From the IMG/VR virus record IMGVR_UViG_2579779052_000007: a stretch of DNA of 31,179 nucleotides, one strand, 5' to 3'. The notes under the pieces are model-generated. The model ran no database searches. It saw only the letters and a program-made list of their open reading frames with translations, and had not been told where the DNA came from. Every line of letters starts with the position of its first letter. Position 1 is the stretch's first letter. This stretch comes from a virus. Taxonomy: Duplodnaviria > Heunggongvirae > Uroviricota > Caudoviricetes. A program made the position numbers and the translations under genes. Positions 9,961-30,479 of this stretch are shown in pieces.

Positions 9961-9967
9961 TCACATA

Positions 9968-10044: not shown

Positions 10045-10057
10045 TTATCTGTATCCT

Positions 10058-12962: not shown

Positions 12963-12985
12963 GGAAGAACAGGAGAGCAAAACAG

Positions 12986-14081: not shown

Positions 14082-14659
14082 GCGCAGAACTCATGCGACT
14101 GCTGAGCAACATCATCCGCACTGGGATCATCTCTGAAGTTGATGAGAAGTCCTGGTGCGTGCGCGTTCGCAGCGGCGAACTGGAAACAGGCTGGTTGCGC
14201 TGGAACACCACGCGCGCGGGAGCCTTCAATGTGTGGCTGCCGCCATCACCCGGCGAACAGGTGGTAATTGCCTGCATTGGCGGCAACCCGGAAACCGCCA
14301 TGATAATTGGCAGCCTGTGGAGTGATGCCAATCCGGCCCCCGGCAAAAGCCTGAAAGAAATCGTGGTCAGCGCGCCGGATGGCGCGGTGTTCCGCTACGA
14401 CGCGGACGCAGGCGCACTGAGCGCCAGCGGCATGAAAACGGCCACCCTGCAGGCATCCGTCAGTGTGACACTGGACACGCCCGTCGTGGAATGCACAGAC
14501 CTTCTGAGAACGGCGACGCTTGACGTCACAAAAGGGGGAAAGATGAGCGGCAATATCACGCACAGCGGCGGCAATTTCACCTCAAACGGCATCACAGTGC
14601 ATACGCATAAACACGGTGGCGTGAAAGGTGGCAGCGATTCGACAGGAGGCCCGCAGTGA
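14078..14659 (+). CDS. V: Baseplate spike protein, P2 gpV-like
   Basis: GTG start overlapping the S stop; GGAGG RBS; glycine-rich C-terminus typical of gpV spikes. Confidence 0.8.
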   Translation: MSAELMRLLSNIIRTGIISEVDEKSWCVRVRSGELETGWLRWNTTRAGAFNVWLPPSPGEQVVIACIGGNPETAMIIGSLWSDANPAPGKSLKEIVVSAPDGAVFRYDADAGALSASGMKTATLQASVSVTLDTPVVECTDLLRTATLDVTKGGKMSGNITHSGGNFTSNGITVHTHKHGGVKGGSDSTGGPQ

Positions 14660-15006
14660 CAACCCGCTACACAGGAATGAACCCGGACGGAACGGGAAAC
14701 CTGAACGATATGGAGCATCTGAAACAGTCAGTCAGGGACATCCTGACCACCCCGCTGGCAAGCCGGGTTATGCGACGGGAATATGGCAGCCTTGTGCCCG
14801 ATTTAATTGACGAACCCATGAATAACACCACTCGTCTGCAATGCATGAGTGCTGCCGTGATTGCGCTGACACGATGGGAACCCCGCATTGCCCTGGACGC
14901 CATCGACGTTGTCTGGAAGGCAGGAGGCCGCGCCGGGGTGACGCTGTCGGGCACTGTCATGCAGACCATGCAGAATGTTGAATTAACCATCACGCTGAGG
15001 GAGTAA
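14656..15006 (+). CDS. W: Baseplate protein, P2 gpW-like (gp25 family)
   Basis: 116 aa; GTG start overlapping the V stop; AGGAGG RBS; P2 gene order. Confidence 0.8.
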   Translation: MTTRYTGMNPDGTGNLNDMEHLKQSVRDILTTPLASRVMRREYGSLVPDLIDEPMNNTTRLQCMSAAVIALTRWEPRIALDAIDVVWKAGGRAGVTLSGTVMQTMQNVELTITLRE

Positions 15007-15009
15007 ATC

Positions 15010-15906
15010 ATGCCTGCCGTTGACCTTTCCCAGTTACCGGAACCCGCCATCATCGCGGAGCCTGACTTTGAGGCAATTCTGGCTGACACAAAGGCCATGA
15101 TGATTGCGTCCTATCCTGTCGAACAGCGTGAAGCCGTCTCCGCCGCGCTGGAGCTGGAATCGGAACCCCTGAACGTTATCGCCCAGACAACAGCGTTTCG
15201 TGAAATGCTGTTACGCCAGCGGGTCAATGAGGGGGCACGCGCCTGCATGTTAAGCCACAGCGCCGGGACAGACCTGGACAACCTCGCGGGCAATATGAAC
15301 ACAAAGCGCCTGACCATCACTCCGGCAACGGATACCACCGACGCAGTGATGGAAAGTGACACCTCGCTGAGACTGCGGGCGCAGCGGGCGTACGATGGCC
15401 TGAGTGTTGCTGGCCCGTCAGGTGCATACGAGTATTTTGCCCGCAGCGCCAGCGGTCTGGTGCGTGATGCGCGGGCTATCAGTCCGTCTCCGGCAAATGT
15501 GACGGTTTCCATCCTGTCCACTGAAGGCGACGGCACAGCAACGGAGGCGTTGCTTAATACCGTTCGCGCCGTTCTGAATGCAGAGGATACCCGCCCGGTG
15601 GCCGACCGCCTGACGGTACAGAGCGCCAGAATCGTGACATGGCGGCTGAATGCAAAACTGTACTTTTACCCCGGCCCGGAATCCGAACCTATTCTGGCGG
15701 CGGCTGAATCGTCGTTCAGGAAGTGGCTGGCTGAGCAGGGGCTTATCGGTCAGGACGTGGCGTTGTCCGCCATTGCTGCCGCACTGCATGTGCACGGTGT
15801 GCAACGCGTGGAGATAATCGAACCCACACAGAATATGGCCATCAGCGACATACAGGCGGCGCGCTGTGAGTCGTTCACCATCAGCGAAGGTGGGCGCAAT
15901 GAGTAA
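15010..15906 (+). CDS. J: Baseplate assembly protein, P2 gpJ-like
   Basis: 298 aa; RBS GAGGGAG; P2 size and order. Confidence 0.85.
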   Translation: MPAVDLSQLPEPAIIAEPDFEAILADTKAMMIASYPVEQREAVSAALELESEPLNVIAQTTAFREMLLRQRVNEGARACMLSHSAGTDLDNLAGNMNTKRLTITPATDTTDAVMESDTSLRLRAQRAYDGLSVAGPSGAYEYFARSASGLVRDARAISPSPANVTVSILSTEGDGTATEALLNTVRAVLNAEDTRPVADRLTVQSARIVTWRLNAKLYFYPGPESEPILAAAESSFRKWLAEQGLIGQDVALSAIAAALHVHGVQRVEIIEPTQNMAISDIQAARCESFTISEGGRNE

Positions 15907-16429
15907 TTCACTGTTACCACCATCAGCCAGCAGTTTCATGCGTTGTGCCGAAGCTGTCGGAACGCGCATTACAGACATCCCGGTAGACCTCAACACGCTG
16001 TGGTCGCCGGACACCTGCCCGGTGCACCTGCTGCCTTATCTCGCCTGGGCATTTTCCGTTGACCGCTGGGATCGCAACTGGCCGGAAGAGACAAAACGAC
16101 AGGTGATTCGTGATGCATGGCTGATACACCGACACAAAGGGACCATCAGCGCACTGCGCAGGGCCATTGAGCCGCTGGGATACCTCATTCGCGTGTCTGA
16201 GTGGTGGGAGTTCGGCGGAGAACCGGGAACATTTACCGTTGAAGTCGGCACACTGGACAGTGGCGTGACGGAGGAAATGTATCTGGAAATGGAGCGGTTG
16301 ATTGCTGATGCCCGTCCGGTCAGCCGCCACATGACAGGGCTGAATATCATTCAGGAAATTCCGGGGGATATTTTTGCAGCGGCGGCAACTCATGACGGTG
16401 AAGTTATTACCATTTATCCGGACGATTAA
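15899..16429 (+). CDS. I: Baseplate/tail protein, P2 gpI-like
   Basis: 176 aa, the same length as P2 I; start overlaps the J stop (ATGAGTAA). Confidence 0.8.
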
Positions 16430-16431
16430 GC

Positions 16432-18564
16432 ATGAGTACCACAACACGAAAATTTAAAACCGTTATCACCGATACAGGTGCAAAAAAATTAGCTCAGGCA
16501 GCCGCGCCAGATGGTAAGCCTGTCCGCCTGACTCATATGGCCGTGGGCGACGGTGGCGGCGCGTTGCCCACACCAGACAGTAAGCAGACCCGTCTGGTGC
16601 ATGAGGTGTGGCGACACACTGTTAATCGCGTCATCCTGGACGCAACACATCAGAACCGCATTATTGCGGAGCTGGTTATTCCTCCAGAAACGGGCGGATT
16701 CTGGATCCGGGAAATTGGTGTGTTTGATGAGCACGGCGATTTAATCGCGGTGGGCAATACTGCCGAAAGTTACAAGCCAGCCGTTGCCGAAGGGTCCGGA
16801 CGTGCACAAACATTTCGCACCATTCTGACCGTATCCAGCACTGCCACTGTGGCGCTTACCGTGGATAACACCATGGTGATGGCCACAGTGGATTACGTGG
16901 ATAACAAACTGAAAGAGCATGAACAGTCACGATGTCACCCGGATGCCTCGCTGACCGCAAAAGGCTTTGTTCAACTCAGTAGCGCCACTAACAGCGATTC
17001 TGAAACGCTGGCTGCAACGCCGAAAGCGGTTAAGGTCGCGTATGATCTTGCTAACGGAAAATATACAGCGCAGGATGCCACAACAGCGCGAAAAGGCCTT
17101 GTCCAGCTTAGTAGTGCAACCAACAGTACATCTGAAACGCTGGCGGCAACATCAAATGCAGTAAAAGCTGCCTATGACAATGCTGAAAAACGTCTGCAGA
17201 AAGCTAAGAATGGTGAGGATATCTCTGATAAAGACACCTTTACGAAAAATATCGGTGCCTGCCGTGCATATAGTGCAGAGCTGAATATTGGTGGAGATAG
17301 TGAAGCATGGACAACTGCGCAGTTGATTTTTTGGCTAGAGAGTCAGGGGGCATTTAACCATCCTTACTGGATGTGCAAAGGCTCATGGGCTTATGCAAAT
17401 AATAAGGTCATTACAGATACAGGTTGCGGAAGTATTTGTCTTGCAGGTGCTGTTGTGGAAGTTATTGGCACCCGCGGCGCAATGACCATACGCATTACCA
17501 CACCGAGTACATCCAGCGGTGAAGGCATCCCTAATGCTCAATTTACTTATATTAATCATGGTGATGCTTATGCTCCTGGCTGGCGAAGGGACTATAACTC
17601 CAGGAATAAGCCAACAGCATCAGAGATCGGGGCGTTACCGTCAGATGGGACAGCAGTATCGTCAGTTAATCTGGCTTCAAAAGGTCGGCTGACCGCCCTG
17701 ACAGATAATATGCAGGGGGCCACAGGTCTGGAGTTATACGAGGCGTATAACAACGGATATCCAACAACGTATGGAAATATCATTCACCTGAAAGGGATGA
17801 CAGCCGTTGGCGAAGGCGAATTACTCATCGGCTGGAGTGGTATAAGCGGTGCTCATGCTCCGGCATTTATTCGTTCACGACGGGATACGACCGACGCAAA
17901 CTGGTCGCCGTGGGCGCAGCTTTACACCTCGGCTCATCCTCCTGAAGAGTTTTATCCAGTCGGTGCACCGATTCCGTGGCCATCAGATACCGTTCCGTCT
18001 GGTTATGCCCTGATGCAGGGGCAGACTTTTGACAAATCTGCATACCCGAAACTTGCAGTCGCTTATCCGTCAGGCGTTATTCCTGATATGCGTGGCTGGA
18101 CGATTAAGGGCAAGCCCGGCAGTGGTCGTGCCGTATTGTCTCAGGAACAGGACGGCATTAAATCGCACACCCACAGCGCCAGCGCATCCAGTACGGATTT
18201 GGGGACGAAAACCACATCGTCGTTTGATTACGGTACTAAAACGACCAGTTCATTTGATTACGGCACAAAAACTACGAATAGCGCTGGAAATCATTCACAC
18301 AATATACCTGTTGGTCACACTGGCGCGGGGAATGGTGTATCAGCCGGTTATAACGCTGCGTTAGGTACTGGTACCACGTCGAGCGCAGGCGAGCATGCTC
18401 ACAATGTATATATCGGTGCCCATAACCACACTATCGGCATTGGTGCTCATGCCCATTCTGTCATTATTGGTCCCCACGGACACACCATCACCGTTAACGC
18501 TACGGGTAACGAAGAAAACACCGTAAAAAACATCGCATTTAACTATATTGTGAGGCTTGCATAA
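16432..18564 (+). CDS. H: Tail fibre protein, P2 gpH-like
   Basis: 710 aa; conserved gpH-type N-terminus; repeat-rich, histidine-rich C-terminal receptor-binding region. Confidence 0.8.
18201..18282 (+). repeat. Tandem 30-nt coding repeats within the tail fibre gene ([10 protein letters not shown], about 2.7 copies)
   Basis: GGGGACGAAAACCACATCGTCGTTTGATTAC / GGTACTAAAACGACCAGTTCATTTGATTAC / GGCACAAAAACTACGAATAGC. Confidence 0.55.
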
Positions 18565-19142
18565 TGACATTCAGAATGAGTGAACACTCACGGACCATAA
18601 AAATTTATAATCTACTGACCGGAACCAATGAGTTTATTGGTGAAGGTGATGCATACATTCCACCTCATACAGGTCTGCCTGCAAACAGTACCGATATTGC
18701 CCCGCCAGATATTCCGGCTGGCTTCGTGGCCGTTTTCAACAGTGATGAGGCATCGTGGCATCTCGTTGAAGACCATCGGGGTAAAACGGTTTATGACGTG
18801 GCATCAGGGGACTCGTTATTTATTTCTGAACTCGGTCCATTACCGGAAAATGTTACCTGGTTGTCGCCGTATGGAGAGTATCAGAAGTGGAACGGCACAT
18901 CCTGGGTGAAAGATGCAGAAGCAGAAAAACTGTTTCGGATAAGGGAGGCGGAAGAAACAAAAAACAGCCTGATGCAGGTAGCCAGCGAGCATATTGCGCC
19001 ACTTCAGGATGCCGTAGATTTGGATATTGCAACGGAGGAAGAGGCATCGTTACTGGCTGCATGGAAGACATACCGGGTATTGTTGAATCGTGTTAATACA
19101 GCGGTAGCAGCGGATGTTGAGTGGCCAGTCGCCCCACAATAA
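18564..19142 (+). CDS. G: Tail fibre assembly protein, P2 gpG-like
   Basis: 192 aa; start overlaps the H stop (ATAATG); position immediately after the fibre gene. Confidence 0.8.
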
Positions 19143-19185
19143 AGAGAAAAAGCCATCGATTGAAATATAGATGGCTTTATGTACT

Positions 19186-19758
19186 CTATTTATACAATAC
19201 AACACCGCTCTTTTTAGTTATATATGTGCAGTTCGATGGTATATCTTTATTTATAAAAGACATTGCACCTATTTTTACATTATCCCCAATTTTACGTGAT
19301 AATCCAATGATGCAACAATTAGCTCCGATATCAACGTTACTACCAATTTTTACTCTTGAACCAGGCATGTCACCATCTATCTGTCCAATGGTAGTATTCT
19401 GTCGTAACACCAGATTTTCACCAGCATCAACAGCAAAATGAACAACAATTCCAGCATGATGGGGAATTGTTAACCCTTTTCCAATATTTGCGCCCAATCC
19501 AATTTCACAACCAAATTTGTTAATTATTTTACTGTTTAACTTTTTGGCTGCTTTCTTATGTAATTTATTACCATTAATATACATTTCGTTAGCCAACCGC
19601 CACCAGAAAAGGAAATTCCGGTTACGCTGTTTTTTCTCTCTTAAAAGCCTCCAGATATCCATACGTTTCCGCCGAATTACTTCATATTTCCAGAAGTTTT
19701 TTAAATTAGTAGAGTCCCCAAATAAAACAAAGTGAATTGCCATTAAGTAAGACAGCAC
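19186..19758 (-). CDS. Hexapeptide-repeat (left-handed beta-helix) acetyltransferase moron
   Basis: AT-rich gene on the opposite strand; repeated G.N..IG hexapeptide pattern; GTG start at 19758 with AAGGAG RBS preferred over the upstream track ATG. Confidence 0.7.
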   Translation of the reverse strand: MLSYLMAIHFVLFGDSTNLKNFWKYEVIRRKRMDIWRLLREKKQRNRNFLFWWRLANEMYINGNKLHKKAAKKLNSKIINKFGCEIGLGANIGKGLTIPHHAGIVVHFAVDAGENLVLRQNTTIGQIDGDMPGSRVKIGSNVDIGANCCIIGLSRKIGDNVKIGAMSFINKDIPSNCTYITKKSGVVLYK

Positions 19759-19914
19759 GATAATCTCCTTAATTATTATTTCAGACCACACATATTATAA
19801 GGTTAAGAGATTATAAAATCCTGTTGTTTGTTATTCAAAAACAATTTTCTGAGAAGGACATACAACAGCAAGTCGCCAGTCACCTTCATCAGGAAATTGG
19901 CGACATACGTTAAA

Positions 19915-20409
19915 TCAGAGCAGCCCCTTAACTGAGCTGGTCGCGCTATTAAGGGATGATGTCACCTTATCTTTGAAGCCGGACAACATATCGCTGAACG
20001 ATGAGGATTGCAGGCGCTCCCGCAAATCCTCATCACAGCGTTCAAGAGTCAGTGAAAATTCTATCTTTTTCGCCTTACCGTAGCGATCAAACTCGGAGCG
20101 GGTCGTATTCGTTTCGGTCAGGACATACATGCCGTAAATCTGCCCGACGCCATCAATCAGAGGCCAGGGCCGTCCTGTATACGCCTGCGTGGTCAGCAGA
20201 GACAGCGACACTTCGCCACCTGTAATTTCAGGATAAAGCACACCAGAAAGAACGATGCGATCATCACCTGCACCGATATACTGCCAGCTTGCTGAACGGT
20301 TAACGCGTTCATTTTTCACATGCCGCCAGCTTTTGTTTTGCTGTAACTGCTGATGCGGCAGCGTGCGCAGCTCAAAAACAAACATGCCATAGATCATCAT
20401 CATGGCCAT
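19915..20409 (-). CDS. U: Tail protein, P2 gpU-like
   Basis: 164 aa; immediately downstream of the tape-measure gene on the minus strand. Confidence 0.75.
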   Translation of the reverse strand: MAMMMIYGMFVFELRTLPHQQLQQNKSWRHVKNERVNRSASWQYIGAGDDRIVLSGVLYPEITGGEVSLSLLTTQAYTGRPWPLIDGVGQIYGMYVLTETNTTRSEFDRYGKAKKIEFSLTLERCDEDLRERLQSSSFSDMLSGFKDKVTSSLNSATSSVKGLL

Positions 20410-20415
20410 GACTCC

Positions 20416-23259
20416 TCAATCTTTATCGTAAAAACTGCCACGCCCGGCACGGGCGCGCCGTTCCATTTCTGCCCTGACCATTTCACCGACCAGTTTCGCC
20501 AGTTCGCGGGGATTCTGCGTAACAACGTTATGCAGATGAACATGAATTTCACCGCCAAATCTGGAGACAGCAGGCTCCCGATTACGGGAAGCTGCAGGAA
20601 CTGATGCCACTGGCGATCGTATGGCCTCCGCCACCGGGCGGGAGCTGGCCGCAACAACAGGGACCAGCGCCGGAGGCAGCGGAGCCGGGACTACGGGTGT
20701 GATATTAATTGCGGGGGCAGGCTTACTGACCTGCGCAATCTTCCGCTCCTGCCACTCCCCACGAACAGCAAGTGCGCGGGGCAGGTTCTTAAAGACAATA
20801 TCGCCAGGGCCAATGCGTTTTTTCGTCTCATCAACCAGCTTACCTGTGTTATCAGCAATTTTGCTGAGTCTGCGTAGCGTCCCGGTATTGCTGTCTGTGA
20901 GCGGTTTGTTGTCTTTGGGTTTATCACCTCCGGTGCCATTGCCATTTTCCACAGGCTTCGGCGGATTGATTTTCGCCAGGTCCCCCTGAAGTAAGGCAAC
21001 CTTATCCTGAAGAATGGCCGCACGCTGTGCGTCTTCGATTTTCTTGCGCGCCCTTTCCGCTTCATCCGGAAGGACGCCAAGTTTTTCAAGTATCCACGCC
21101 AGCGTATCCAGTAGCATTTTTGCAGGTGTCAGAACAAGTTGTAACGCACCGCCAAGAACGTTACCGAATATCTCGCCAGCACTGGTACATTTATCCAGCG
21201 TTTCCTTGCTGGACTCCATCGGTGACAGCAGCGATTTAAACCAGTTAAACACCTGGCTGATCCCGCTTCCGATTGCGTCAAAAACAGGGCCAAACCGTTC
21301 AAAGGTTTCACGCAACGGGTTCAGCCTTTCCATAATCCCGCTGAACACCCCGGCAAAAAATGCCCTGATGGGATCCCAGTATTTCCAGATAAGGACGGCA
21401 GCTCCGGCAAGCGCAGCCACGATAAGACCAACCGGACTGAACAGCGCCCCGATAGCGCCTCCCAGTAAAGAAACGGAACCCGTCACCATTCCCCATAGTG
21501 CTGGCAGGACCCTGACAGCATTCATTGATCCGGTCAGGAGAGAAAAACCAAGACGCAGTTTTGCCAGCGGACCAGCAAGCACACCAATAGCCAGCGACAA
21601 CGAGCCAACCGTTGCAGTCATTGCCAGCAACGCACCGCCTGCTATCAGTAGCTGGCGCGTCAGTGCCGGATGGGCCTGCGCCAGCGCCGTCACCCTTGAT
21701 ACCACCCGCGTGAGCCACTGCGTGACAGAACGCAGCGGACCGTCAATCAGATCTGCAATGCGGATGCGCAACCCTTCCCATGCACTGCCGAGTGATTTCA
21801 GATCGCCGTCAAGGTTGTTGGCCATAACCTTTGCTGTGCGTTCAGCCTCACCGCGCGCGCCTTCAAGTTCTTTTCTCAGTTTGGGTAAGGAACCGTCACC
21901 CACTGCATCAACGAGCGCCATAAACGATGTGAAAGCCTCTTCTCCGGCAATGTCCTTAAAGAACGATACCCGGTCAACTTCCCCGTATTTGCGGGTGGCT
22001 TTATAAAGGTCGGCCAGCACATCCTCCATCGGGCGCATTTTACCCCCGGCATCCGAGACGGACACGCCCAGCTCTTTCAGAGCTTCTGCCGCCGCCTTTG
22101 GCGGTGATGCCAGACGAGCCAGGCTGGCACGCATTGCCGTCCCGGCATCACTCCCTCTGATGCCCATATTCGCCAGCACACCAGCCATCGCTGCGGCCTG
22201 CTCCAGCGATATTCCCAGCTTACCCGCCACCGGACCTGCATATTTCATGGTTTCGCCCAGTGCGCGAAGGTCAGTGTTGGTACGGGTAAACGCTGCGGTG
22301 AGTGTGTCACCGACCCGGTCCATCTGGTCAGCAGAAAGGCCGAACTGCGTCAGGATATTTGAGCCAATATCTGCCGTCTCGCCGAGATCCATACCGCCAG
22401 CCGTTGCCATGCTCAGCACTCCGGGAAGCGCAGCCTGAATGGCCTGCGGTGTGAAGCCTGCCATTGCAAGAAATGCCTGCCCACTGGCGGCATCGCCTGC
22501 GGTGAACTGCGTTTCAGAGCCAAGTTTTAACGCCTGCTCACGCAGCGCCTTAAACTGCGGGCTGTTCTGGTCGATTCGCGTCAGCGCCTGAACGCGGGAC
22601 ATCTCTTTGCCGAACCCGATCGCGGGCTGCAAAAAACGCCCGGCAGCATAGCCGCCCGCCGCTGCCGCACCAATTGCCAGCGCACCACCTGTTTTCAGTT
22701 TTCCCGCGGTTTCCTGCGCGCGCGAATACCACTCACGCGCCCGCGTTACACGCGCAAGCGCCTGCCGTTCGCGTTCAAGCTGGTTGTTGTACTGTTCGGT
22801 GCGTCTGATGGCCTGCTGGATGGTGTTATCGCTGCCTGTCAGGGAAATGCCGTGGCGTTTCAGCTCTCCGCCAAGCTCCCGCATTTTCTGAATTTCCCGT
22901 GTGCGCGATTCATTCAGGCGTTCAAGCCGGGTGCTTAACTGCTGCATCAGCTTTTGTTGTTTTTCGCTGAGCACTGTACCCGTGCGTTGTAACTGATTAA
23001 GGGCGTTAAGCTGGCGTCGTGCTTTCACGATACCCGCATCCGCTTTACTGACAGCGTCGCGGGCGCGCTCAAATGAACGAGCCTGACGCTCGAGATTTTT
23101 AATCGCCCCCTGCGTTCGCTGGATGGAGTCACCAAACTGCCCCATCAGGCGGCGGGCGTTTTCGGCAGGCCGGGTCAGCCTGTCAACGGCGCTGAAAGCG
23201 ACCCGGATATCAAGAGTCTTCATTGTCTGCATTCCCGCTGCGAAGTGCCGCCCGCTCAC
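20416..23259 (-). CDS. T: Tail tape measure protein, P2 gpT-like
   Basis: Long alpha-helical, Gly/Ala-rich protein; true start probably at one of the internal ATGs at 23232 or 23223. Confidence 0.8.
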   Translation of the reverse strand: MSGRHFAAGMQTMKTLDIRVAFSAVDRLTRPAENARRLMGQFGDSIQRTQGAIKNLERQARSFERARDAVSKADAGIVKARRQLNALNQLQRTGTVLSEKQQKLMQQLSTRLERLNESRTREIQKMRELGGELKRHGISLTGSDNTIQQAIRRTEQYNNQLERERQALARVTRAREWYSRAQETAGKLKTGGALAIGAAAAGGYAAGRFLQPAIGFGKEMSRVQALTRIDQNSPQFKALREQALKLGSETQFTAGDAASGQAFLAMAGFTPQAIQAALPGVLSMATAGGMDLGETADIGSNILTQFGLSADQMDRVGDTLTAAFTRTNTDLRALGETMKYAGPVAGKLGISLEQAAAMAGVLANMGIRGSDAGTAMRASLARLASPPKAAAEALKELGVSVSDAGGKMRPMEDVLADLYKATRKYGEVDRVSFFKDIAGEEAFTSFMALVDAVGDGSLPKLRKELEGARGEAERTAKVMANNLDGDLKSLGSAWEGLRIRIADLIDGPLRSVTQWLTRVVSRVTALAQAHPALTRQLLIAGGALLAMTATVGSLSLAIGVLAGPLAKLRLGFSLLTGSMNAVRVLPALWGMVTGSVSLLGGAIGALFSPVGLIVAALAGAAVLIWKYWDPIRAFFAGVFSGIMERLNPLRETFERFGPVFDAIGSGISQVFNWFKSLLSPMESSKETLDKCTSAGEIFGNVLGGALQLVLTPAKMLLDTLAWILEKLGVLPDEAERARKKIEDAQRAAILQDKVALLQGDLAKINPPKPVENGNGTGGDKPKDNKPLTDSNTGTLRRLSKIADNTGKLVDETKKRIGPGDIVFKNLPRALAVRGEWQERKIAQVSKPAPAINITPVVPAPLPPALVPVVAASSRPVAEAIRSPVASVPAASRNREPAVSRFGGEIHVHLHNVVTQNPRELAKLVGEMVRAEMERRARAGRGSFYDKD

Positions 23260-23424
23260 GCCAGCTAACCACTTCGCCGGGCGTCATCATGAAGATTTCG
23301 GCGGGCGACCAGTTAAAAATAACGGCAATATCTGCCACAAAGTCTTCTATGTGCTCAAAGCACACAACCGTGATCAGGCTTCCGTCGCCTGTTCGTTCTT
23401 CCCGCCAGAGTCCGCACCGCTCAA
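23210..23424 (-). CDS. E': E' extension reached by programmed -1 frameshift (gives the E+E' fusion)
   Basis: The -1 frame opens directly after the minus-strand heptamer and continues ERCGLWREERTGDG...WSPAEIFMMTPGEVVSWRERAAL to a stop at 23210-23212. Confidence 0.6.
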
Positions 23425-23739
23425 AAAATTTACGGCAACCACACATAACTGAATAAAGTCACGGGATGCCATTTTTTTGATCGTCACTTCATCCAGTCGC
23501 GGTGATGTCACGCGTGACAGCAACGTAAACATGGATTCCGCTTTCAGATTCAGCACATCAGACAGCGACAAATCTCGCAGAGATCCAGCCTGCTCAATAG
23601 CCCCGGTGATCTCCACATACGTGATTTTTTCGCCGCCTCGCTCAATTGGTTGGGTAAGTTTTACACCACGCTCACTGGTTTCTTTCACAGTGTCAGCAAC
23701 TACCGTGTTTTCGGTATCGATGTTTTTCGTCTCTTTCAT
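23374..23739 (-). CDS. E: Tail assembly chaperone, P2 gpE-like
   Basis: 121-aa ORF between the tube and tape-measure genes; contains the T TTT TTG slippery heptamer near its 3' end. Confidence 0.7.
   Translation of the reverse strand: MKETKNIDTENTVVADTVKETSERGVKLTQPIERGGEKITYVEITGAIEQAGSLRDLSLSDVLNLKAESMFTLLSRVTSPRLDEVTIKKMASRDFIQLCVVAVNFLSGADSGGKNEQATEA
23422..23428 (-). other. Slippery heptamer T TTT TTG for the E/E' -1 frameshift
   Basis: Plus-strand CAAAAAA at 23422-23428; in the E frame the minus strand reads AAT TTT TTG. Confidence 0.6.
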
Positions 23740-23793
23740 CAGGAAACTCCTTTCAGTCAGAGGCGACGCACTGCGCCGCCTGCATATTACTTA

Positions 23794-24306
23794 TCAGCCA
23801 AGCCCGAGCGCGGAACGGATGCGATCGGGCACAATGTCCTTGCCGTCCTTCCGGTAAATGAAGTTCAGCAGGTCAATCTCCCACAACGGGCGATCGTTAA
23901 CACTCAGCTTGTAGTAGGTGTTTTTAATGGCGTAAGTGTGTGATGTGGCTTCGCCCTGTTTGGCTTCCCCCATATCAATTTCCGTCACACGTCCGCGCAT
24001 TTCGACTTCATACAGGTCGCTTTCTGCATCGGTGTAATATTCACCCGCAAAACGCAGCAGCGTGCCGTCAATCGTGCCGCCATACTTAAGGAACAGCTCA
24101 CGAACTGCGCCCCCCATGACAAAGCTCGCATCAAGCGCGGAGTCGTCCAGACCGAGATCAATACTTACCGCACCCATCATGCCACCACCCCGGTAGCTGT
24201 CGGTTTTGCGCGTCAGCTTAGGCAGAGTGACGGACGTCACCTTACCCACTTCGTTTTCACCATCCACAAACAGCGTAAAAAAGCGAAGATGTTTTGGTAC
24301 AGCCAT
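23794..24306 (-). CDS. FII: Tail tube protein, P2 gpFII-like
   Basis: 170 aa; directly follows the sheath gene with overlapping start and stop. Confidence 0.85.
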   Translation of the reverse strand: MAVPKHLRFFTLFVDGENEVGKVTSVTLPKLTRKTDSYRGGGMMGAVSIDLGLDDSALDASFVMGGAVRELFLKYGGTIDGTLLRFAGEYYTDAESDLYEVEMRGRVTEIDMGEAKQGEATSHTYAIKNTYYKLSVNDRPLWEIDLLNFIYRKDGKDIVPDRIRSALGLG

Positions 24307-25490
24307 CAGGCACCTCCCAGCACCGCAAATGCGGGTTCAAAGTATTCATCAGTAAACGTCTGGTAAAGCTCCATGTCTTCCAGTGGCGGAACGGGCGTAT
24401 ATTTGTAGCGAATACGCACACGCCCCTGACGTAAATCCGTGGTGCTGTTATCCACCACGTCATACCAGCACTCCGCGCCAATCAGTTTCCCGGCAGTAAC
24501 CAGCGAATCCAGTTTTGCCCTGATGGCACTGATAACATCCTTCACGTTCGCAGGCGTCAGTGGACTGTCGATGGTTTCAAACTGCGCTTCCGCAATTGAA
24601 TCAGCCAGCACCTGTGCGGTTCGGGTATACACCTCAAAGATGTAGGCGTTCGTTTCCGGTGTGCGGTTGCCCCAGAAGCGGAACCCGTTGCGACGAATAA
24701 TGGTCGTGATTTCTTTGTTGTTGAGGCTGTTGGCATCACTGTCTTCGGCCTGCAACGACCAGAAAACATGCCTGGACATCCCCAGCACATTTTTAACAGG
24801 AACGTTGGACAGCGATTTGTGCCAGCCCTGCTCATGGTCAATGTACGCACGAAGGCCGCACGCATAGGCAGGCGCGGGGAACGTTTCGTTTTTGCCACTT
24901 TTCGGGTTGTAGGCGATGAAGTCCGGCCATAAGAGCATCACCTCACGTTCGTTGAATTTCTGGCGGTAGGTAATTGCCTCAGCCATCGTGTTACAGTCAT
25001 GACATGAGGCATACACAAACGCGCGCAGTTTACCCGCAATCACGCACAGGGATTTTGTCACCGCCTCCGTGTCCAGCTCCGGCGCGGCCAGAATACGCGG
25101 ACGGTATCCGATGCTTTCATCCTGCTCTGCAACAAGCAGCGCATACATCCCCGTATAGCTGCCGTCAGATTCAGAACCACCGATAACCAGTTGATCCTGC
25201 GTCTTACCGCCTTCTTCTTTGTGTTCAGCCACGCGAACGACGATCACTTTTGTGCTCACCTGGTCTGCAATAGCCTTAAGCGCACGATAAAGCGTCCCCG
25301 TAGTCCCGCATTTTCCCAGCACGTCATTGACGCGGGTCAGCAGTGTGGGCTTGTTCAGCGGGAACAGCTCCGCGTCCGCATCATCCGCCGTTGCCACGAT
25401 ACCGATAACACTGGAATCAACATCATTAATCGCTGTTACCAGGTCGGTACTTTCCGTAACACGGGCACCATGAAAACGAGTTTCACTCAT
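24306..25490 (-). CDS. FI: Contractile tail sheath protein, P2 gpFI-like
   Basis: 394 aa (P2 FI is about 396); conserved sheath-like C-terminus. Confidence 0.85.
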   Translation of the reverse strand: MSETRFHGARVTESTDLVTAINDVDSSVIGIVATADDADAELFPLNKPTLLTRVNDVLGKCGTTGTLYRALKAIADQVSTKVIVVRVAEHKEEGGKTQDQLVIGGSESDGSYTGMYALLVAEQDESIGYRPRILAAPELDTEAVTKSLCVIAGKLRAFVYASCHDCNTMAEAITYRQKFNEREVMLLWPDFIAYNPKSGKNETFPAPAYACGLRAYIDHEQGWHKSLSNVPVKNVLGMSRHVFWSLQAEDSDANSLNNKEITTIIRRNGFRFWGNRTPETNAYIFEVYTRTAQVLADSIAEAQFETIDSPLTPANVKDVISAIRAKLDSLVTAGKLIGAECWYDVVDNSTTDLRQGRVRIRYKYTPVPPLEDMELYQTFTDEYFEPAFAVLGGA

Positions 25491-25647
25491 AGCTTCAGCC
25501 CCTTGTATCCGTTAAATGATTCGGCAACAATCATCACCCACCACGCGCGTAATCTCACCCCTGCGCCGTTCTCCCGCCACGGCGACAACAAAAAGCAGTA
25601 ACCCCCTATGCACGCACATGCGACCATGCCGCACAGGGAGGGAACAG

Positions 25648-26748
25648 ATGACCGATACCACCATGCAATTGCTCAGTCAGAGCACAGACCCCGTGAAAAT
25701 GCCGGATTTTGATATTCTCGCGGAGGGGGAAACACTGTCCGGCGTGGCAGAGCGCCTGATGAGCCTGTCACTGACCGACAACCGGGGATTTGAAGCGGAC
25801 CTGCTCACCATCACGCTGGATGATGCGGATGGTCAGTTGCAGCTACCGCCACGGGGCGCGCGCCTGACGGTTCTCATTGGCTGGAAAGGAGAACCGCTGA
25901 CAGAAAAAGGCACTTACATTGTTGATGAAATCGCTCACGAAGGACCGCCGGACAGGCTGACTGTTTCAGCCAGAAGCGCAGATTTTCGGGATGAATTTAA
26001 CGTTAAACGTGAGGTGTCCTGGCATGATGTGACCGTTGAGCGCGTGGTATCCGCCATCGCTCATCGGTACGGTCTGAAACCACAAATCAGCGAAATGCTG
26101 ATGGATATTGAAATCGACCACGCCGACCAGACCGAAGAAAGCGACATGTCCTTCCTTACGCGCATGGCGGAAATGCTGGGCGCAATCACTACGGTAAAAA
26201 GCAGTAATCTGTTATTCATCATGCCAGGCGGTGGCGTGAACGCACAGGGCCAGCCGTTGCCATCGTTCGCCATCACGCGCAGCAGTGGCGATCGCCATCA
26301 GTTCCGCATTGCTGACCGCGAAGCGTATACGGGGGTACGTGCTTACTGGCTTGATCTTAATTACGGGAAAAAGAAAAAAGTCAGCGTGAAACGCCGCAAA
26401 CCGAAAAAGGAGAAAAGCAGCAGCCGTGAAGGTGACTATATGGAAGGTGCGGAAGGCAACGTGTTTGTGTTACGCAAGACTTATCAGAACGAGCAGGCAG
26501 CAAGACGTGCAGCGGCGGCAAAGTGGCAGCAGCTACAACGCGGAGCCGCATCATTCTCCATCACGCTGGCGCGTGGACGCGCAGAACTCTATCCCGAAAT
26601 GCATGGCACGGTGACAGGCTTCAAAAGTGACATCGATAATCAGGACTGGATTATTGCAAAAGCCGAGCACACCATTGATAACAGCGGCTTTACCACACAG
26701 CTTGAGCTTGAAGCAAAAATCCCGGAATGGATAGCAGAAACAGAATGA
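25648..26748 (+). CDS. D: Tail protein, P2 gpD-like
   Basis: GGGAGGG RBS before the ATG at 25648 (the track ORF extends to 25516); about 366 aa; lies upstream of ogr. Confidence 0.75.
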   Translation: MTDTTMQLLSQSTDPVKMPDFDILAEGETLSGVAERLMSLSLTDNRGFEADLLTITLDDADGQLQLPPRGARLTVLIGWKGEPLTEKGTYIVDEIAHEGPPDRLTVSARSADFRDEFNVKREVSWHDVTVERVVSAIAHRYGLKPQISEMLMDIEIDHADQTEESDMSFLTRMAEMLGAITTVKSSNLLFIMPGGGVNAQGQPLPSFAITRSSGDRHQFRIADREAYTGVRAYWLDLNYGKKKKVSVKRRKPKKEKSSSREGDYMEGAEGNVFVLRKTYQNEQAARRAAAAKWQQLQRGAASFSITLARGRAELYPEMHGTVTGFKSDIDNQDWIIAKAEHTIDNSGFTTQLELEAKIPEWIAETE

Positions 26749-27162
26749 GCAAATTAGATGTATTGACTCAAACCAGAACTGACACACTCACAGCACAGTG
26801 CCAGACCCAATCTGGCAGCCCGCTTTGTGCCTAGAGCAGGTGTTGCTTATGTAACAGTTAATCCACGGATAGTGGTCATGAATGCTGGTTGAAGTTGTAT
26901 TGCCATGAGTGGTCAATTAGGGACTCACTTATTATCGCGTGCTCACCATTGATGGGTAAGATCATGCATTTCGGCTACTGTACTTCGCGAATCCTCCGCA
27001 CACAGGCAACACCTGATTTAAGAACAGAGGGAGATGATGACGCAAGGAAGATTTATTATCGTGCATGTGGCAGATGATCTTTTAGCTGCCGGAGTGATAA
27101 ATTACACCTATTTTCGATAAGTGTTTTTGTTATAGAACATTAATTTCGTGGGAAACAATAAA

Positions 27163-28287
27163 GTGAAATTAGGAAGAAATGATAAGTGCTGGTGTAATTC
27201 AGGACTTAAGTATAAAAAGTGCCATCTTGGTCGAGATCGTGAAACTCCGGTATCCAAAGCCGAGGCACTGAAATTTTCAAAGTCTCTCTCGCAGAGAAAG
27301 GCATGTTATGCGCCAGCATCCATGCACGAAGATTGTGATAAACGCATCGTTCAGGCGCATACGATATCTAAGAGCAGTAGCCTTAAGGCGATCGCCGACT
27401 CCAGCAATCACGTCATGGGGGTGATAATGAACTTAGCAAGCCTGATGAGAAACAACGGAAAATGGCTTCCCGAGAAGATCGGTATCAATCAGGCATCCAC
27501 TTTTACAGGATTTTGTGCAGTTCATGACAGAATCTTATTTTCATGCCTAGAGAACGAAAAATTTACAGGCACGGACGAGCAGTGCTTTGCCTTAATGTTT
27601 CGTTCATTGTCTAAAGAAATTTATGCCAAAGAAGGGGGAGTGCTATCTTCTGATTTTGCTAAAAATGCCGATAAAGGAAAGCTACAAGTTGAACAGTATT
27701 ATATTCAGAAATTAATCGACCAGCACCAAAGTGGCTTAAATGCAGCAATAATTGAATTAAATAATCTTAAAACTAGCCTCGACCGCATCCTACTTAGCAG
27801 GCAATTTTCAGAAATTGAAAGTGTTATCTTCACTTTTGCAGAGCCTTTACCAATTGTAGTTTCGTCAATTCTTTCACCGGAGAGGGATTTCGATGGGACC
27901 AAAATTCAGGATTTGAGCGATCTTACAGTGTCGGCGGAACAAGTATGTTTCAATGCTTTTTCCTGCGGAGGTAAGGGATATGTAGTGTTCAGTTGGCTGA
28001 GAACTTCAACAATTATCAGACGTTTTATACGGACACTAATTAAGATCCCAGCTAACAGGATGTTCAATACCCTTCTGTATTTTTTCTTCACAAAGGCCGA
28101 AAATACATATTCATCCCCTGAGTGGTGGGACAGGCTCAGTGATAAACAGCGAGAGAATATCGGCAACATGATTATGTCAGGGGTTGAATTTTTTGGCATA
28201 CCTACATCACAGGTTGATCATTCCGTTGATTATAACGCCGCTGCACTTGAAGAGATAACATGCAGCAACAACGAAATTTGCAGCTGA
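27163..28287 (+). CDS. SEC-C-motif protein of unknown function (AT-rich moron between D and ogr)
   Basis: N-terminal KLGRNDKCWCNSGLKYKKCH resembles the SecA C-terminal zinc motif; start must be a GTG (27163, or 27148 as in the track) because the first in-frame ATG lies after the motif. Confidence 0.5.
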   Translation: MKLGRNDKCWCNSGLKYKKCHLGRDRETPVSKAEALKFSKSLSQRKACYAPASMHEDCDKRIVQAHTISKSSSLKAIADSSNHVMGVIMNLASLMRNNGKWLPEKIGINQASTFTGFCAVHDRILFSCLENEKFTGTDEQCFALMFRSLSKEIYAKEGGVLSSDFAKNADKGKLQVEQYYIQKLIDQHQSGLNAAIIELNNLKTSLDRILLSRQFSEIESVIFTFAEPLPIVVSSILSPERDFDGTKIQDLSDLTVSAEQVCFNAFSCGGKGYVVFSWLRTSTIIRRFIRTLIKIPANRMFNTLLYFFFTKAENTYSSPEWWDRLSDKQRENIGNMIMSGVEFFGIPTSQVDHSVDYNAAALEEITCSNNEICS

Positions 28288-28576
28288 ATGTTTACATGCT
28301 GTTAGAAAAAGCGGGCTGAACAATCATTTCGGGATTGTAACAGATAAGATGGCACTGCCCGCTTGCTTCCCGATATGCACCTCAGCCAATAAACTTATGT
28401 AAGCAACCGATTTCCATTTATGCGGAGGTTATCAAAGTTGTTGGAGTTGCGAACTTCCGCTCTTCGCACAAAGCGTACCGCTAGGTTTGATTGTATTCTG
28501 GCTGCGCAAACTGTCAGTTGGAGTCTGAGCTATTACAACTTAGAATAGCGGCAGCACCACGTTAAGGGAGGTCGCT

Positions 28577-28837
28577 ATGTTCCGTTGTCCGCTTTGTGGC
28601 GCATCTGCCCGAATCCGCACCAGTCGTCCGGAAAACGATTCAAACACTGTGCGGCAAAAGTATTACCAGTGTAACAACCTGGAATGCGGCGTATGCTTCT
28701 CAACACTGGAAGCTTTCCATAAATTCACATCAAAACACGCCTCCGGCGTTCACTCTTCGGAAGGTATCCCGTGGCATGAGCTGCCAGCTTCACACAGGGG
28801 AAACAATCAGATGAGTTTGCCTTTACCTCAGAATTAA
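28577..28837 (+). CDS. ogr: Ogr/Delta-family zinc-finger late transcription activator
   Basis: MFRCPLCGASARIRTSR...YYQCNNLECG: four-Cys zinc finger and overall similarity to P2 Ogr; AAGGGAGG RBS. Confidence 0.8.
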   Translation: MFRCPLCGASARIRTSRPENDSNTVRQKYYQCNNLECGVCFSTLEAFHKFTSKHASGVHSSEGIPWHELPASHRGNNQMSLPLPQN

Positions 28838-29026
28838 CAGGCAGAATTGCCGGAGTAACAAAAAAACGATAGATTACCCGCGGGTGCCTTTCGGCTGATG
28901 GTCGGAGGAATACCCGAAGGCCGGATGTGGAAAGGCCCCGGAAAACATTTCTGTTTAACCGAGGCCCTAACATATCTACCTTAAGCAAGTGATAGGTTAG
29001 CGCCTCTCCAACAAAGGAGCAAGCGC

Positions 29027-29167
29027 TATGTCGCAAAAATCGCTTACAGCCATCACGTTCTGCGTGACGGTAATCCTCATCATCTGGATGCTACACGGTT
29101 CGCTGTGTGAAATACGGATGAGCTTCTGGGGAGCGGAGTTTGCGGCGTTCTTACAGTGTAAGCAGTA
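29027..29167 (+). CDS. Hok-family type I toxin (HokA-like); below the ORF-track size cutoff
   Basis: 46-aa translation MSQKSLTAITFCVTVILIIWMLHGSLCEIRMSFWGAEFAAFLQCKQ has a single transmembrane helix and the SLCE...AAFL signature; AGGAG RBS 8 nt upstream. Confidence 0.6.
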
Positions 29168-29256
29168 AGGAAACCGCGACGGGGGAGCAATCCCCCGTCA
29201 ATCGGTTGCTAAGGTTGGCTGAAGTGGCACCCTATCTCACAGACATGAACAACAAA

Positions 29257-29288
29257 CCCGCAGCGTAAGAACTGCGGGTTTTCTTTTT
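29257..29288 (+). terminator. Rho-independent terminator downstream of the hokA-like gene, possibly bidirectional
   Basis: CCCGCAG-loop-CTGCGGG hairpin followed by TTTTCTTTTT; an A-rich run precedes it. Confidence 0.5.
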
Positions 29289-30177: not shown

Positions 30178-30264
30178 TGGTACCCGGAGCGGGACTTGAA
30201 CCCGCACAGCGCGAACGCCGAGGGATTTTAAATCCCTTGTGTCTACCGATTCCACCATCCGGGC
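30178..30264 (-). tRNA. leuZ: tRNA-Leu (anticodon UAA)
   Basis: 87-nt class II tRNA; reverse complement GCCCGGATGGTGGAATCGGTAGACACAAGGGATTTAAAATCCC...GGTACCA. Confidence 0.85.
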
Positions 30265-30276
30265 TCGGGAAGAAAG

Positions 30277-30350
30277 TGGAGGCGCGTTCCGGAGTCGAAC
30301 CGGACTAGACGGATTTGCAATCCGCTACATAACCGCTTTGTTAACGCGCC
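30277..30350 (-). tRNA. cysT: tRNA-Cys (anticodon GCA)
   Basis: 74 nt; reverse complement GGCGCGTTAACAAAGCGGTTATGTAGCGGATTGCAAATCCGTC...CTCCA. Confidence 0.85.
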
Positions 30351-30403
30351 AAATTCTTCAGGCCTTTCAGCCAGACATCCGCTGACGCCGATGCCTTTTA
30401 AAC

Positions 30404-30479
<76 letters not shown>

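Follow-up and report, generated by a model that had tools for sequence, protein, structure and literature searches.

A P2-type tail gene set normally lies on one strand, and the stretch of DNA analysed in this study, 31,179 nucleotides and hereafter called the window, raises the question why the genes from the sheath gene FI to gene U are found on the opposite strand from their neighbours. The initial annotation of this locus offered two answers, a lineage-specific arrangement with divergent promoters or a rearrangement in a decaying prophage. Our results favour the former. We consider, with a probability of about 85%, that this is the standard layout of a P2-related clade in the Enterobacterales, which arose by one ancestral inversion of FI to U and has divergent FI and D promoters sharing a single activator box.

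The window contains the complete P2-type tail set (R, S, V, W, J, I, H, G, FI, FII, E/E', T, U and D; Table 1), and 13 of these 14 genes give family-specific Pfam matches, while E is recognized by its tblastn match to P2 E and by its position. U, T, E/E', FII and FI occupy the minus strand from 19915 to 25490, flanked on the plus strand by R-S-V-W-J-I-H-G to the left and by D and ogr to the right, and all genes of the block are intact open reading frames with full-length Pfam matches. Every protein of this set matches a P2 counterpart, and the counterparts in P2 are all on one strand in the canonical order, so a single inversion of about 5.6 kb restores the P2 order. On these points the Pfam matches and the comparison with P2 agree with the initial annotation, which had put V to G and D on the plus strand and FI, FII, E/E', T and U in one contiguous minus-strand block, had FI and D diverging across 25491-25647 (a spacer of 157 bp), and had proposed that one such inversion would give back the order of P2. 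The window thus departs from the canonical co-directional order of V to G and FI to D in that FI to U lie on the opposite strand; this marks a sub-clade and does not exclude membership in the P2-type tail modules of the Peduoviridae. The product of ogr is named in RefSeq as an 'ogr/Delta-like zinc finger family protein'.

Table 1. Features of the tail region and its junctions in the window
Feature	Position	Strand	Basis or remark
Plus-strand tail/baseplate unit	12986-19142	+	Pfam; 96.5% identity to and colinear with P88 over 13028-17178
R	12986-13453	+	Pfam P2_Phage_GpR
S	13437-14081	+	Pfam Phage_tail_S
V	14078-14659	+	Pfam Phage_base_V/spike
W	14656-15006	+	Pfam GPW_gp25
J	15010-15906	+	Pfam Baseplate_J
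I	15866-16429	+	Pfam Tail_P2_I
Tail fibre H	16432-18564	+	Pfam Phage_tail_fib/Collar
Fibre assembly protein (G position)	18564-19142	+	Pfam Caudo_TAP
Hairpin AAAGCCATC…GATGGCTTT, convergent junction	19149-19178		U-rich sequence after the hairpin on both strands
Hexapeptide-repeat O-acetyltransferase, low-GC cargo	19186-19791	-	Pfam Hexapep
U, last gene of the inverted operon	19915-20409	-	Pfam Phage_P2_GpU, 5.5e-39
T, tape measure (longest ORF)	20416-23259	-	Pfam PhageMin_Tail, 3.7e-58
Tail chaperones E and E'	23210-23739 (E 23374-23739; E' frame ends 23210)	-	Sequence, tblastn, RefSeq
Tail tube FII	23794-24306	-	Pfam Phage_tube, 7.5e-47
Tail sheath FI, first gene of the inverted operon	24306-25490	-	Pfam Phage_sheath_1, Gp18_domIII_N, Phage_sheath_1C
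Predicted pF core promoter	25522-25535	-	-10 hexamer GATGAT at 25530-25535; predicted start near 25523
Single Ogr/Delta-type activator box, midway between FI and D	25570-25587		Clade conservation; position and spacing of P2 sites
Predicted pD core promoter	25619-25635	+	Extended -10: TG at 25619-25620, GACCAT at 25622-25627; predicted start near 25634
D, baseplate hub/late control D, directed away from FI	25648-26748	+	Pfam Phage_GPD
ogr, zinc-finger late activator expected to bind the FI-D box	28577-28837	+	Pfam Ogr_Delta, 5e-14

The chaperone genes in the block also follow P2. E has no Pfam match but aligns with P2 gene E by tblastn (E about 6e-9), and a P2-type slippery heptamer, TTTTTTG, is found at 23422-23428 on the minus strand, followed by the open -1 frame of E', which at the sequence level overlaps the start of T. 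The P2 record annotates the same E+E' frameshift. Judged by its sequence, the window therefore has an E/E' pair for which a -1 frameshift is predicted at the T-rich slippery heptamer ahead of T. RefSeq annotates a 'GpE family phage tail protein' at the E' position and, in an identical prophage, starts T at 23223.

How widely the inverted order is distributed was revealed by a survey of one genome per species, in which the loci were sorted by the identity of their FI sheath protein to that of the window. All 54 loci with a sheath identity of at least 55% are inverted by gene map, and all 26 loci at 51% or below show the P2 order, including those of Pseudomonas, Acinetobacter, Paraburkholderia and Stutzerimonas. 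The reference phages raise the number of inverted loci to 57, against 26 canonical ones. In neighbour-joining trees of FI, FII, U and D the inverted loci group as one clade, and the two layouts are reciprocally monophyletic in these trees, which are midpoint-rooted and without bootstrap support. The P2 order appears to be the ancestral state because the canonical order has the wider host distribution, an argument that does not come from a rooted phylogeny. Two loci, L101 and L047, deviate from the pattern, and L101 carries two invertase copies and shows further rearrangement. GC skew was considered as a clock for the inversion and set aside as uninformative, because the skew travels with the coding strand.

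The inverted clade spans some two dozen named genera of Enterobacterales, and the layout is common to three genera of the Peduoviridae, Xuanwuvirus, Reipivirus and Senquatrovirus. It is also found in phages known to work. The inverted order is present in P88, a plaque former with a contractile tail (PMC5285337), in the plaque-forming myovirus SEN4 (PMC5261728) and in PhiSM, a temperate phage shown to be active (PMC6456863). Furthermore, 328 complete E. coli genomes carry at least 80% of 12900-27000 in one place, the best matches being single colinear pieces. The synteny check against related P2-like phages that had been called for thus shows that working relatives keep the same orientation as a conserved family trait, and the feature is therefore not an anomaly. 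The inverted sheath-to-U block is inherited and normal in a large group of functional phages related to P2, and the lineage-specific alternative is supported by the three genera, by the relatives with at least 55% sheath identity and by the FI-D spacer described below. The layout itself is already known in the sense that it is visible in annotated public genomes of characterized phages. The papers on P88, PhiSM and SEN4 and a 2026 survey of P2-like defence hotspots make no mention of the inversion or orientation of the block, and the papers on Xenorhabdus and Dickeya tailocins hold nothing informative on the layout. We found no comment on it in the searchable literature; the Casjens and Grose survey of P2-like prophages, which lay outside this search, may describe it.

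Two explanations would make the block peculiar to this contig or strain. The left part of the window has a junction between lambdoid and P88-like DNA, at 12.5-12.8 kb, that is reproduced by no complete E. coli genome and may be either real or an assembly join through a shared esterase gene, so the contig deserves some suspicion elsewhere, and a 5.6-kb block misoriented during assembly could have produced the observed order. However, single alignments run colinearly across both block boundaries in hundreds of complete genomes, the same order recurs in the independently sequenced P88, SEN4, Kp4848-1 and SCU-105 prophage, FI and D are divergent in all 80 close relatives among the IMG/VR contigs, and the block has no flanking repeats able to mislead an assembler. 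These data effectively refute misassembly of the block and leave it next to no probability. We also regard as highly improbable a recent, strain-specific rearrangement in a decaying prophage, since the inversion is far older than the strain: it is fixed among all relatives of at least 55% sheath identity, it extends across the Enterobacterales genera and plaque-forming phages mentioned above, and the genes within the block are intact. Decay is indeed suggested by other parts of the window, which lacks P88-type head, lysis, replication and integrase genes and whose left 12.6 kb are lambdoid, so that the element is probably defective. The prophage copy in the window looks incomplete for these other reasons, and its expression may perhaps be nil, but the decaying-prophage alternative of the initial annotation is not supported for this block in view of P88, SEN4, PhiSM and the E. 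coli genomes.

A programmed segment flipped by a Gin/Cin/Hin-type invertase, with the P2 order as the other state of the switch, deserves consideration because in P88, and in about 10 of 55 clade members, a DNA invertase gene borders the left end of the block, just past the stop codon of U, and because L101, with its two invertase copies, is further rearranged. The window shows none of the marks of an invertible segment, namely an adjacent invertase, crossover repeats at both ends and both orientations among relatives. A tblastn search with the P88 invertase gave no match in the window at E up to 10, in agreement with the initial annotation, which had seen no invertase gene. Nothing flanking the block was detected in a repeat search of 18.5-27.2 kb, nor was there an inverted-repeat pair joining 19.8-19.95 kb with 25.45-25.65 kb. 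FI and D are in the P2 order in 0 of 57 clade loci and 0 of 80 close relatives, SEN4 and most other members are inverted without an adjacent invertase, and the invertase of P88 adjoins alternative fibre and assembly genes, which are its expected substrate. We therefore give this switch very little credence. The short motifs shared by the two boundaries, CAGCCCCTT and CGTTAAAT, were also rejected as meaningful signals, as they fit chance and are not conserved. Their positions and direct orientation were described correctly in the initial annotation, as was the caution that they might be coincidental, but the suggestion that they might matter is not borne out by shuffled sequences, 35% of which share an 8-mer and 10% a 9-mer, and by the equivalent places in SEN4 and Kp4848-1, where neither motif is present. 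One copy of CAGCCCCTT lies in the coding sequence for the C-terminal end of U (…KGLL*), and the other overlaps the FI Shine-Dalgarno sequence.

The inverted layout has a convergent junction between G and U, and this junction serves as a slot for variable genes. Homology to P88 stops at 17178 and restarts at 19909. The window has in this interval another fibre C-terminus, a different assembly gene and the acetyltransferase, in contrast to P88, where an invertible segment with alternative fibre sequence and a DNA invertase are found. The hairpin next to the fibre assembly gene folds at -14.3 and -16.6 kcal/mol on the two strands (z -4.5 and -4.9; none of 200 shuffles was as stable) and is predicted to terminate transcription in both directions, that of the plus-strand fibre unit as well as that on the minus strand. 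The acetyltransferase cargo has a GC content of 0.38-0.44, is preceded by a sigma-70-like promoter sequence at 19810-19838 on the minus strand, and matches serine and polysaccharide O-acetyltransferase families in NCBIfam, all under their cut-offs; RefSeq names this gene 'serine O-acetyltransferase'. Compared with P88, the window also has a 1.8-kb insertion between D and ogr encoding a SEC-C motif protein, of which PADLOC and NCBIfam scans matched only the short N-terminal motif.

The divergent junction between FI and D is where the inversion would have had regulatory consequences. P2 late promoters of the Ogr/Delta-dependent type are characterized by a requirement for Ogr, which in P2 makes contact with the alpha subunit of RNA polymerase. 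The box in the middle of the FI-D spacer reads TGTCGCCGTGGCGGGAGA on the minus strand and corresponds to TGT-N12-ACA with one mismatch (AGA for ACA). Among 53 distinct spacer sequences from the clade, 48 have a central box no more than one mismatch from this consensus, and many clade members have perfect boxes. The annotated activator sites of P2 likewise carry one mismatch, and the pP/pO region of P88 has the same half-site variant as the FI-D box. Because the Xuanwuvirus box has this mismatch, an exact search of the window for TGT-N12-ACA (7 matches, no more than expected by chance) finds none in the FI-D spacer. Another candidate, a TGTT-N16-AACA dyad shared with P88 pP/pO, was discarded in favour of the TGT-N12-AGA box because its register was wrong.

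We calibrated the promoter geometry on the mapped start sites of P2. In the P2 record, one activator site is shared by pP and pO, each start lies 55.5 nt from the centre of the box, and the -10 hexamers fall at positions 35-40, that is, 34 nt from the box. The FI-D spacer has a -10-like hexamer at the same distance on both sides, from which the start sites are predicted. Over the 53 distinct spacers, an nAnnnT hexamer starts exactly at position 35 on the FI side in 52 and on the D side in 51, and any other offset reaches at most 11 of 53. On the FI side, a GCGTG element that also occurs in the pF of canonical relatives is retained, and the predicted 33-nt leader of pF includes an AAGGGG Shine-Dalgarno sequence; on the D side, TG is found at positions 32-33 in 35 of the 53 sequences, and D has the Shine-Dalgarno sequence GGGAGGG. 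By sequence, the spacer has the dyad element of Ogr/Delta late promoters and the window encodes the cognate activator, ogr. These features suggest that the FI-D spacer is a bidirectional late promoter, with both directions probably firing and Ogr-dependent. It is also conceivable that the layout is as described but the D promoter is constitutive or Ogr-independent, the D-side hexamer being conserved for another reason. The D-side hexamers are weak (GACCAT, GATCCT), and a conserved CGCGCG block together with the TGn motif could support activator-independent transcription from an extended -10 element. But the D-side hexamer stands 34 nt from the box, just as on the FI side and at mapped P2 pP/pO, and 51 of 53 diverged sequences preserve this spacing; without a role of the box on the D side as well, such conservation would be difficult to account for. 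In addition, D is a structural late gene for which late timing is needed. Ogr-independent expression of D thus seems unlikely.

An ancestral inversion with divergent promoters around a shared box, the reading we prefer, could have come about as follows. In the ancestor of the clade, one inversion would have flipped the F operon minus its last gene, that is, pF with FI, FII, E/E', T and U. One breakpoint would lie between the end of the V operon, where the cargo slot is now, and the activator site of pF, and the other between U and D, which abut in P2. The outcome would be two convergent units, V…G and FI…U, joined at the terminator and cargo slot, and a divergent FI/D junction with one dyad-symmetric Ogr box at about -55 of both pF and a new pD. 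D has no promoter of its own in most canonical relatives, P2 included, because U and D abut or nearly abut there. With pF and its dyad-symmetric site placed beside a promoterless D, a -10 element may have evolved at the mirror-image distance. From then on, pF would drive FI to U leftward and pD would drive D rightward, probably on toward ogr, so that the pP/pO design would be duplicated and D, with read-through into ogr, uncoupled from the sheath-tube operon. We lean towards the view, with some reserve, that the inversion itself made this bidirectional Ogr promoter, in a single ancient event now shared by an Enterobacterales-wide clade of at least three ICTV genera.

The layout matters little for discovery. 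Since it is visible in annotated, characterized phages, it gives no reason to mark the window as rearranged or decaying, and those who annotate on the expectation of P2 synteny, as well as tools that judge prophage completeness by it, should regard this order as regular in P88-, Reipivirus- and SEN4-like phages. The inversion also provides a clean shared-derived character by which a large clade in the Enterobacterales can be told apart from the remaining P2-like phages. The predicted pF/pD pair offers a testable case in which a dyad-symmetric activator site may have saved a gene cut from its operon.

Among the known systems, the closest is P88 (Xuanwuvirus P88, Peduoviridae, NC_026014), which has the same order and orientation from R to ogr and is 96-97% identical over 13028-17178, 19909-26758 and 28537-29288, with 98% identity in the FI sheath, 99% in the D protein and only 2 nt of difference in the 157-bp FI-D spacer. 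The likeness is confined to the tail module, as P88 has the head, lysis, replication and integration genes that the window lacks. Salmonella phage SEN4 (Senquatrovirus) and Klebsiella phage Kp4848-1 (Reipivirus), with sheath identities of 56% and 70% to the window, show the same layout (V…G plus, U-T-E-FII-FI minus, D/ogr plus) and, in the middle of the FI-D spacer, a TGT-N12-ACA box that is perfect or nearly so, and SEN4 has neither invertase nor cargo between G and U. P2 (Peduovirus P2, NC_001895), whose sheath is about 47% identical to that of the window in a search of a phage collection, shares 15 tail and regulatory genes with it, ogr and the frameshifted E/E' pair among them, and has a late activator box also at about -55. 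In P2, however, FI to D form one co-directional operon from pF, whose box serves one direction only, whereas in the window FI to U are inverted and D is left on its own. The geometry of the FI-D spacer is that of P2 pP/pO, a divergent pair sharing one site, but pP and pO serve head and packaging genes and are experimentally mapped, while the FI/D pair is predicted. The Mu G segment, the P1 C segment and the P88 fibre segment, the last with a Gin/Cin-family invertase at the block boundary, are tail-region inversions as well. Those segments are reversible, lie between inverted crossover sites and comprise nothing but fibre exons and assembly genes, whereas the block in the window is fixed, has no flanking repeats and contains the operon from sheath to U.

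The ORF map and Pfam scans bear out the gene calls of the initial annotation, and with them its observation that the block from FI to U is reversed relative to phage P2 and that D diverges from FI, the spacer between the two being 157 bp long. A P2 counterpart was found for each of these tail-region proteins, including that of gene E, which had no match in the Pfam scan. P2 itself carries all these genes on a single strand, arranged R S V W J I H G FI FII E T U D ogr.

Tail-region genes of the window and predicted regulatory elements of the FI-D spacer
Feature	Coordinates	Strand or location	Basis or remark
R	12986-13453	plus	ORF map and Pfam
S	13437-14081	plus	ORF map and Pfam
V	14078-14659	plus	ORF map and Pfam
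W	14656-15006	plus	ORF map and Pfam
J	15010-15906	plus	ORF map and Pfam
I	15866-16429	plus	ORF map and Pfam
Tail fibre H	16432-18564	plus	ORF map and Pfam
Fibre assembly gene	18564-19142	plus	ORF map and Pfam
Acetyltransferase	19186-19791	minus	ORF map and Pfam
U	19915-20409	minus	ORF map and Pfam
Tape measure T	20416-23259	minus	ORF map and Pfam
E	23374-23739	minus	match to P2 gene E
Slippery TTTTTTG, P2-type	23422-23428	minus	then E' frame ending at 23210
Tube FII	23794-24306	minus	ORF map and Pfam
Sheath FI	24306-25490	minus	ORF map and Pfam
D	25648-26748	plus	ORF map and Pfam
SEC-C motif protein	27148-28287	plus	ORF map and Pfam
ogr	28577-28837	plus	ORF map and Pfam
Predicted Ogr/Delta-type box	25570-25587	FI-D spacer	clade alignment
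Predicted pF (FI-U operon)	-10 at 25530-25535; start near 25523	minus	geometry
Predicted pD (gene D)	TG 25619-25620; -10 25622-25627; start near 25634; then GGGAGGG and ATG 25648	plus	geometry

The initial annotation had offered two readings of the reversed block, a lineage-specific arrangement with divergent promoters or a rearrangement in a decaying prophage. By that annotation's own standard of refutation the block does not qualify as an anomaly, as related functional phages carry it in the same orientation and the trait is conserved in the family. Many complete E. coli chromosomes match the stretch 12900-27000 in a single piece at 99.9-100% identity, and 328 complete E. coli genomes have 80% or more of it at one place. 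The closest phages, at 95-97% identity, are P88 and further members of Xuanwuvirus. As annotated, P88 has the layout of the window: its baseplate and fibre genes share one strand, the opposite strand carries U, tape measure, E', E, tube and sheath, and D diverges from the sheath gene. The complete P88-like prophage SCU-105 has the same order and matches the window across the block at 100% identity; for the Citrobacter rodentium phage PhiSM, identity is about 96% where the tail module aligns. P88 can be induced with mitomycin and forms plaques; its burst size is about 65, and electron microscopy shows a contractile tail (PMC5285337). An active temperate lifestyle is documented for PhiSM (PMC6456863), and SEN4, from Salmonella, is a plaque-forming myovirus (PMC5261728). 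FI and D are also divergent in all 80 close IMG/VR relatives.

Two other explanations were considered and rejected. If the block were an invertase switch, both orientations might be expected, and an invertase gene does lie just past the U stop codon in P88 and in about 10 of 55 loci of the clade with the inverted layout. That invertase, however, adjoins alternative fibre and assembly genes, and most clade members, SEN4 included, are without one. The window encodes no invertase gene, a repeat search across 18.5-27.2 kb found no inverted repeats pairing the two block boundaries, and block orientation is invariant among the relatives examined (57 clade loci and 80 from IMG/VR). An artefact of assembly is rejected because both boundaries are independently confirmed. 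Neither do the two shared motifs that had been noted at the boundaries retain significance, since local context explains them and their chance expectation is 10-35%: one copy of CAGCCCCTT codes for the C-terminal end of U, the other overlaps the ribosome-binding site of FI, and the motifs are absent from SEN4 and Kp4848-1.

The conserved inverted layout reaches well beyond these close relatives. Sheath relatives in the phage collection form three tiers, Xuanwuvirus at 95-99%, Klebsiella phages of the genus Reipivirus at 60-80% and SEN4 (Senquatrovirus) at about 56%, with the remainder at or below about 49% (P2 about 47%); by tblastn gene maps P88, Kp4848-1 and SEN4 are inverted and a Klebsiella Gegevirus is canonical, that is, in P2 order. 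We then mapped 15 tail genes at each of 80 loci from a sheath-alignment scan of one genome per bacterial species. D diverges from FI in all 54 loci with sheath identity of at least 55%, and their baseplate genes, where present, converge on U with the single exception of L101. The inverted loci occur in Salmonella, Citrobacter, Edwardsiella, Enterobacter, Kosakonia, Symbiopectobacterium, Erwinia, Mixta, Pantoea, Izhakiella, Trabulsiella, Klebsiella, Raoultella, Brenneria, Serratia, Pectobacterium, Yokenella, Providencia, Xenorhabdus, Hafnia, Dryocola and others. P2 order is found in all 26 loci whose sheath identity is at most 51%, among them loci from Pseudomonas, Acinetobacter, Paraburkholderia and Stutzerimonas. 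In neighbour-joining trees of the survey loci and reference phages (57 inverted, 26 canonical), the inverted loci group into a single clade with FI, FII, U and D, and fail to do so with V, J and I. The block and D are therefore inherited together, and the baseplate module is exchanged with canonical phages. The convergent junction acts as a module boundary, with the baseplate and fibre module swapped between the two layouts. Read most simply, a single old inversion became fixed in a clade of at least three ICTV genera. With trees rooted only at the midpoint, we infer that canonical order is ancestral because it reaches other orders and Betaproteobacteria. For J, the minimum inverted-to-canonical distance in the trees (loci L086-L165) is 0.24. 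Two loci have unusual orders: L101 (Trabulsiella odontotermitis, ~15.6-17.6 kb) is further rearranged, with D truncated, I and H co-directional with U, an invertase gene adjoining U and part of a second one; in L047, an IMG/VR contig, S-V-W-J-I-H lie upstream of ogr/D and run in the same direction as FI.

Because inversion of the block strips D of its upstream operon, D must be transcribed from inside the FI-D spacer, which is 136-206 bp long in the clade. An alignment of 53 distinct clade spacers contains a single conspicuous central element, TTGT-N12-ACAA, the P2 Ogr/Delta box, with the variant TGT-N12-AGA in Xuanwuvirus-like members. When the spacers were anchored on this box without gaps, a hexamer with the two best-conserved -10 positions, nAnnnT, started exactly at position 35 after the box on the FI side in 52/53 and on the D side in 51/53, and at any other offset in at most 11/53. 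In 35 of the 53 the D side further carries an extended -10, with TG at positions 32-33, and this side has a CGCGCG block; the FI side retains a GCGTG element at positions 10-15 that is visible too in pF of canonical relatives. In Providencia (L119, L120, L121, L138) the box is TCT-N12-AGA, its half-sites altered symmetrically with spacing to both -10 hexamers retained, which suggests co-variation with the Ogr protein of that lineage. The predicted arrangement is thus one dyad-symmetric activator site that would lie at about -55 of two back-to-back promoters, pF and pD. The P2 record annotates the terminator after ogr for both the F operon and ogr, so F-operon transcripts run through D into ogr; in the clade D and ogr remained together outside the inverted block, and pD could keep this read-through.

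At the other end of the block, V to G and FI to U converge on a stable hairpin (19149-19178) with U-rich tails on both strands. Between them also lies the low-GC acetyltransferase gene, a hexapeptide O-acetyltransferase with its own sigma-70-like promoter (gene and promoter 19186-19838), whereas P88 has an invertible fibre segment and invertase in this slot and SEN4 almost nothing. Homology to P88 ends at 17178 and resumes at 19909, 6 bases past the U stop; together with the differing contents, this indicates that the convergent junction behaves as a cargo and exchange site. It corresponds to the P2 G-FI slot, which holds fun(Z). Two unrelated phages, JL22 and vB_EcoM-Ro157c2YLVW, share the fibre C-terminus together with the assembly gene and the acetyltransferase at 94-96% identity; the three probably form a lysogenic-conversion cassette. 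In H, 17230-17598 (369 bp) matches the alternative fibre arm of P88 (26836-26468) at 89.7% in reverse orientation, and looks like the remnant of an invertible fibre segment that became fixed in its other state and then lost its invertase.

As a P88-like prophage the window is incomplete; tail genes are present, and head and lysis genes are absent. Up to about 12.6 kb it is lambdoid, with cI-type repressor-, cro- and cII-like genes, replication proteins, a RusA-like resolvase, antiterminator Q (7535-8224), a DNA methylase (8786-9835) and, downstream of Q and the methylase, three tRNAs (9885-10134), Met-CAT, Arg-TCG and Arg-TCT; in a near-identical prophage RefSeq labels the first of them Ile. 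The join falls inside a DUF1737/SASA/DUF6645 esterase gene (11109-12962) common to lambdoid and P88-like prophages. The window matches a lambdoid copy at 99.6% up to 12947 and the SCU-105 P88-like copy with zero mismatches from 12570 on, and this overlap places the crossover at ~12570-12705. The junction is found in 0 of 5,426 complete E. coli genomes, and is a rare recombinant or else was joined in assembly through a ~1.7-kb repeat; with both block boundaries independently confirmed, the verdict on the block is untouched. Between D and ogr, a 1.8-kb low-GC insertion relative to P88 (26758-28537) encodes a 379-aa protein (RefSeq 'YecA family protein') in which only a SEC-C motif at the N-terminus can be recognised; PADLOC matches are weak and cover that motif only. 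A TGT-N12-ACA match just upstream (27122-27139) is too near the start codon for a -55 site. The host leuZ-cysT-glyW tRNA cluster and pgsA (30178-30479) mark the right chromosomal flank of the prophage.

The layout already stands in annotated genomes of characterised phages, and we found no comment on it in the literature searched. What is mildly new is the inversion as a marker of a clade across Enterobacterales, and the predicted bidirectional pF/pD promoter with its shared box. Judged from its geometry, the FI-D spacer appears to repeat a design already used in the family. The experimental calibration is the annotated P2 pair pP and pO, divergent late promoters for which the GenBank record gives one activator binding site (3057-3087) and starts at 3016 and 3127: the 18-nt box sits at the centre of that site, both -10 hexamers are at positions 35-40 and both starts at position 47 after the box. 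The pP/pO region of P88 and SEN4 is likewise built around a single box, which in P88 is the AGA variant.
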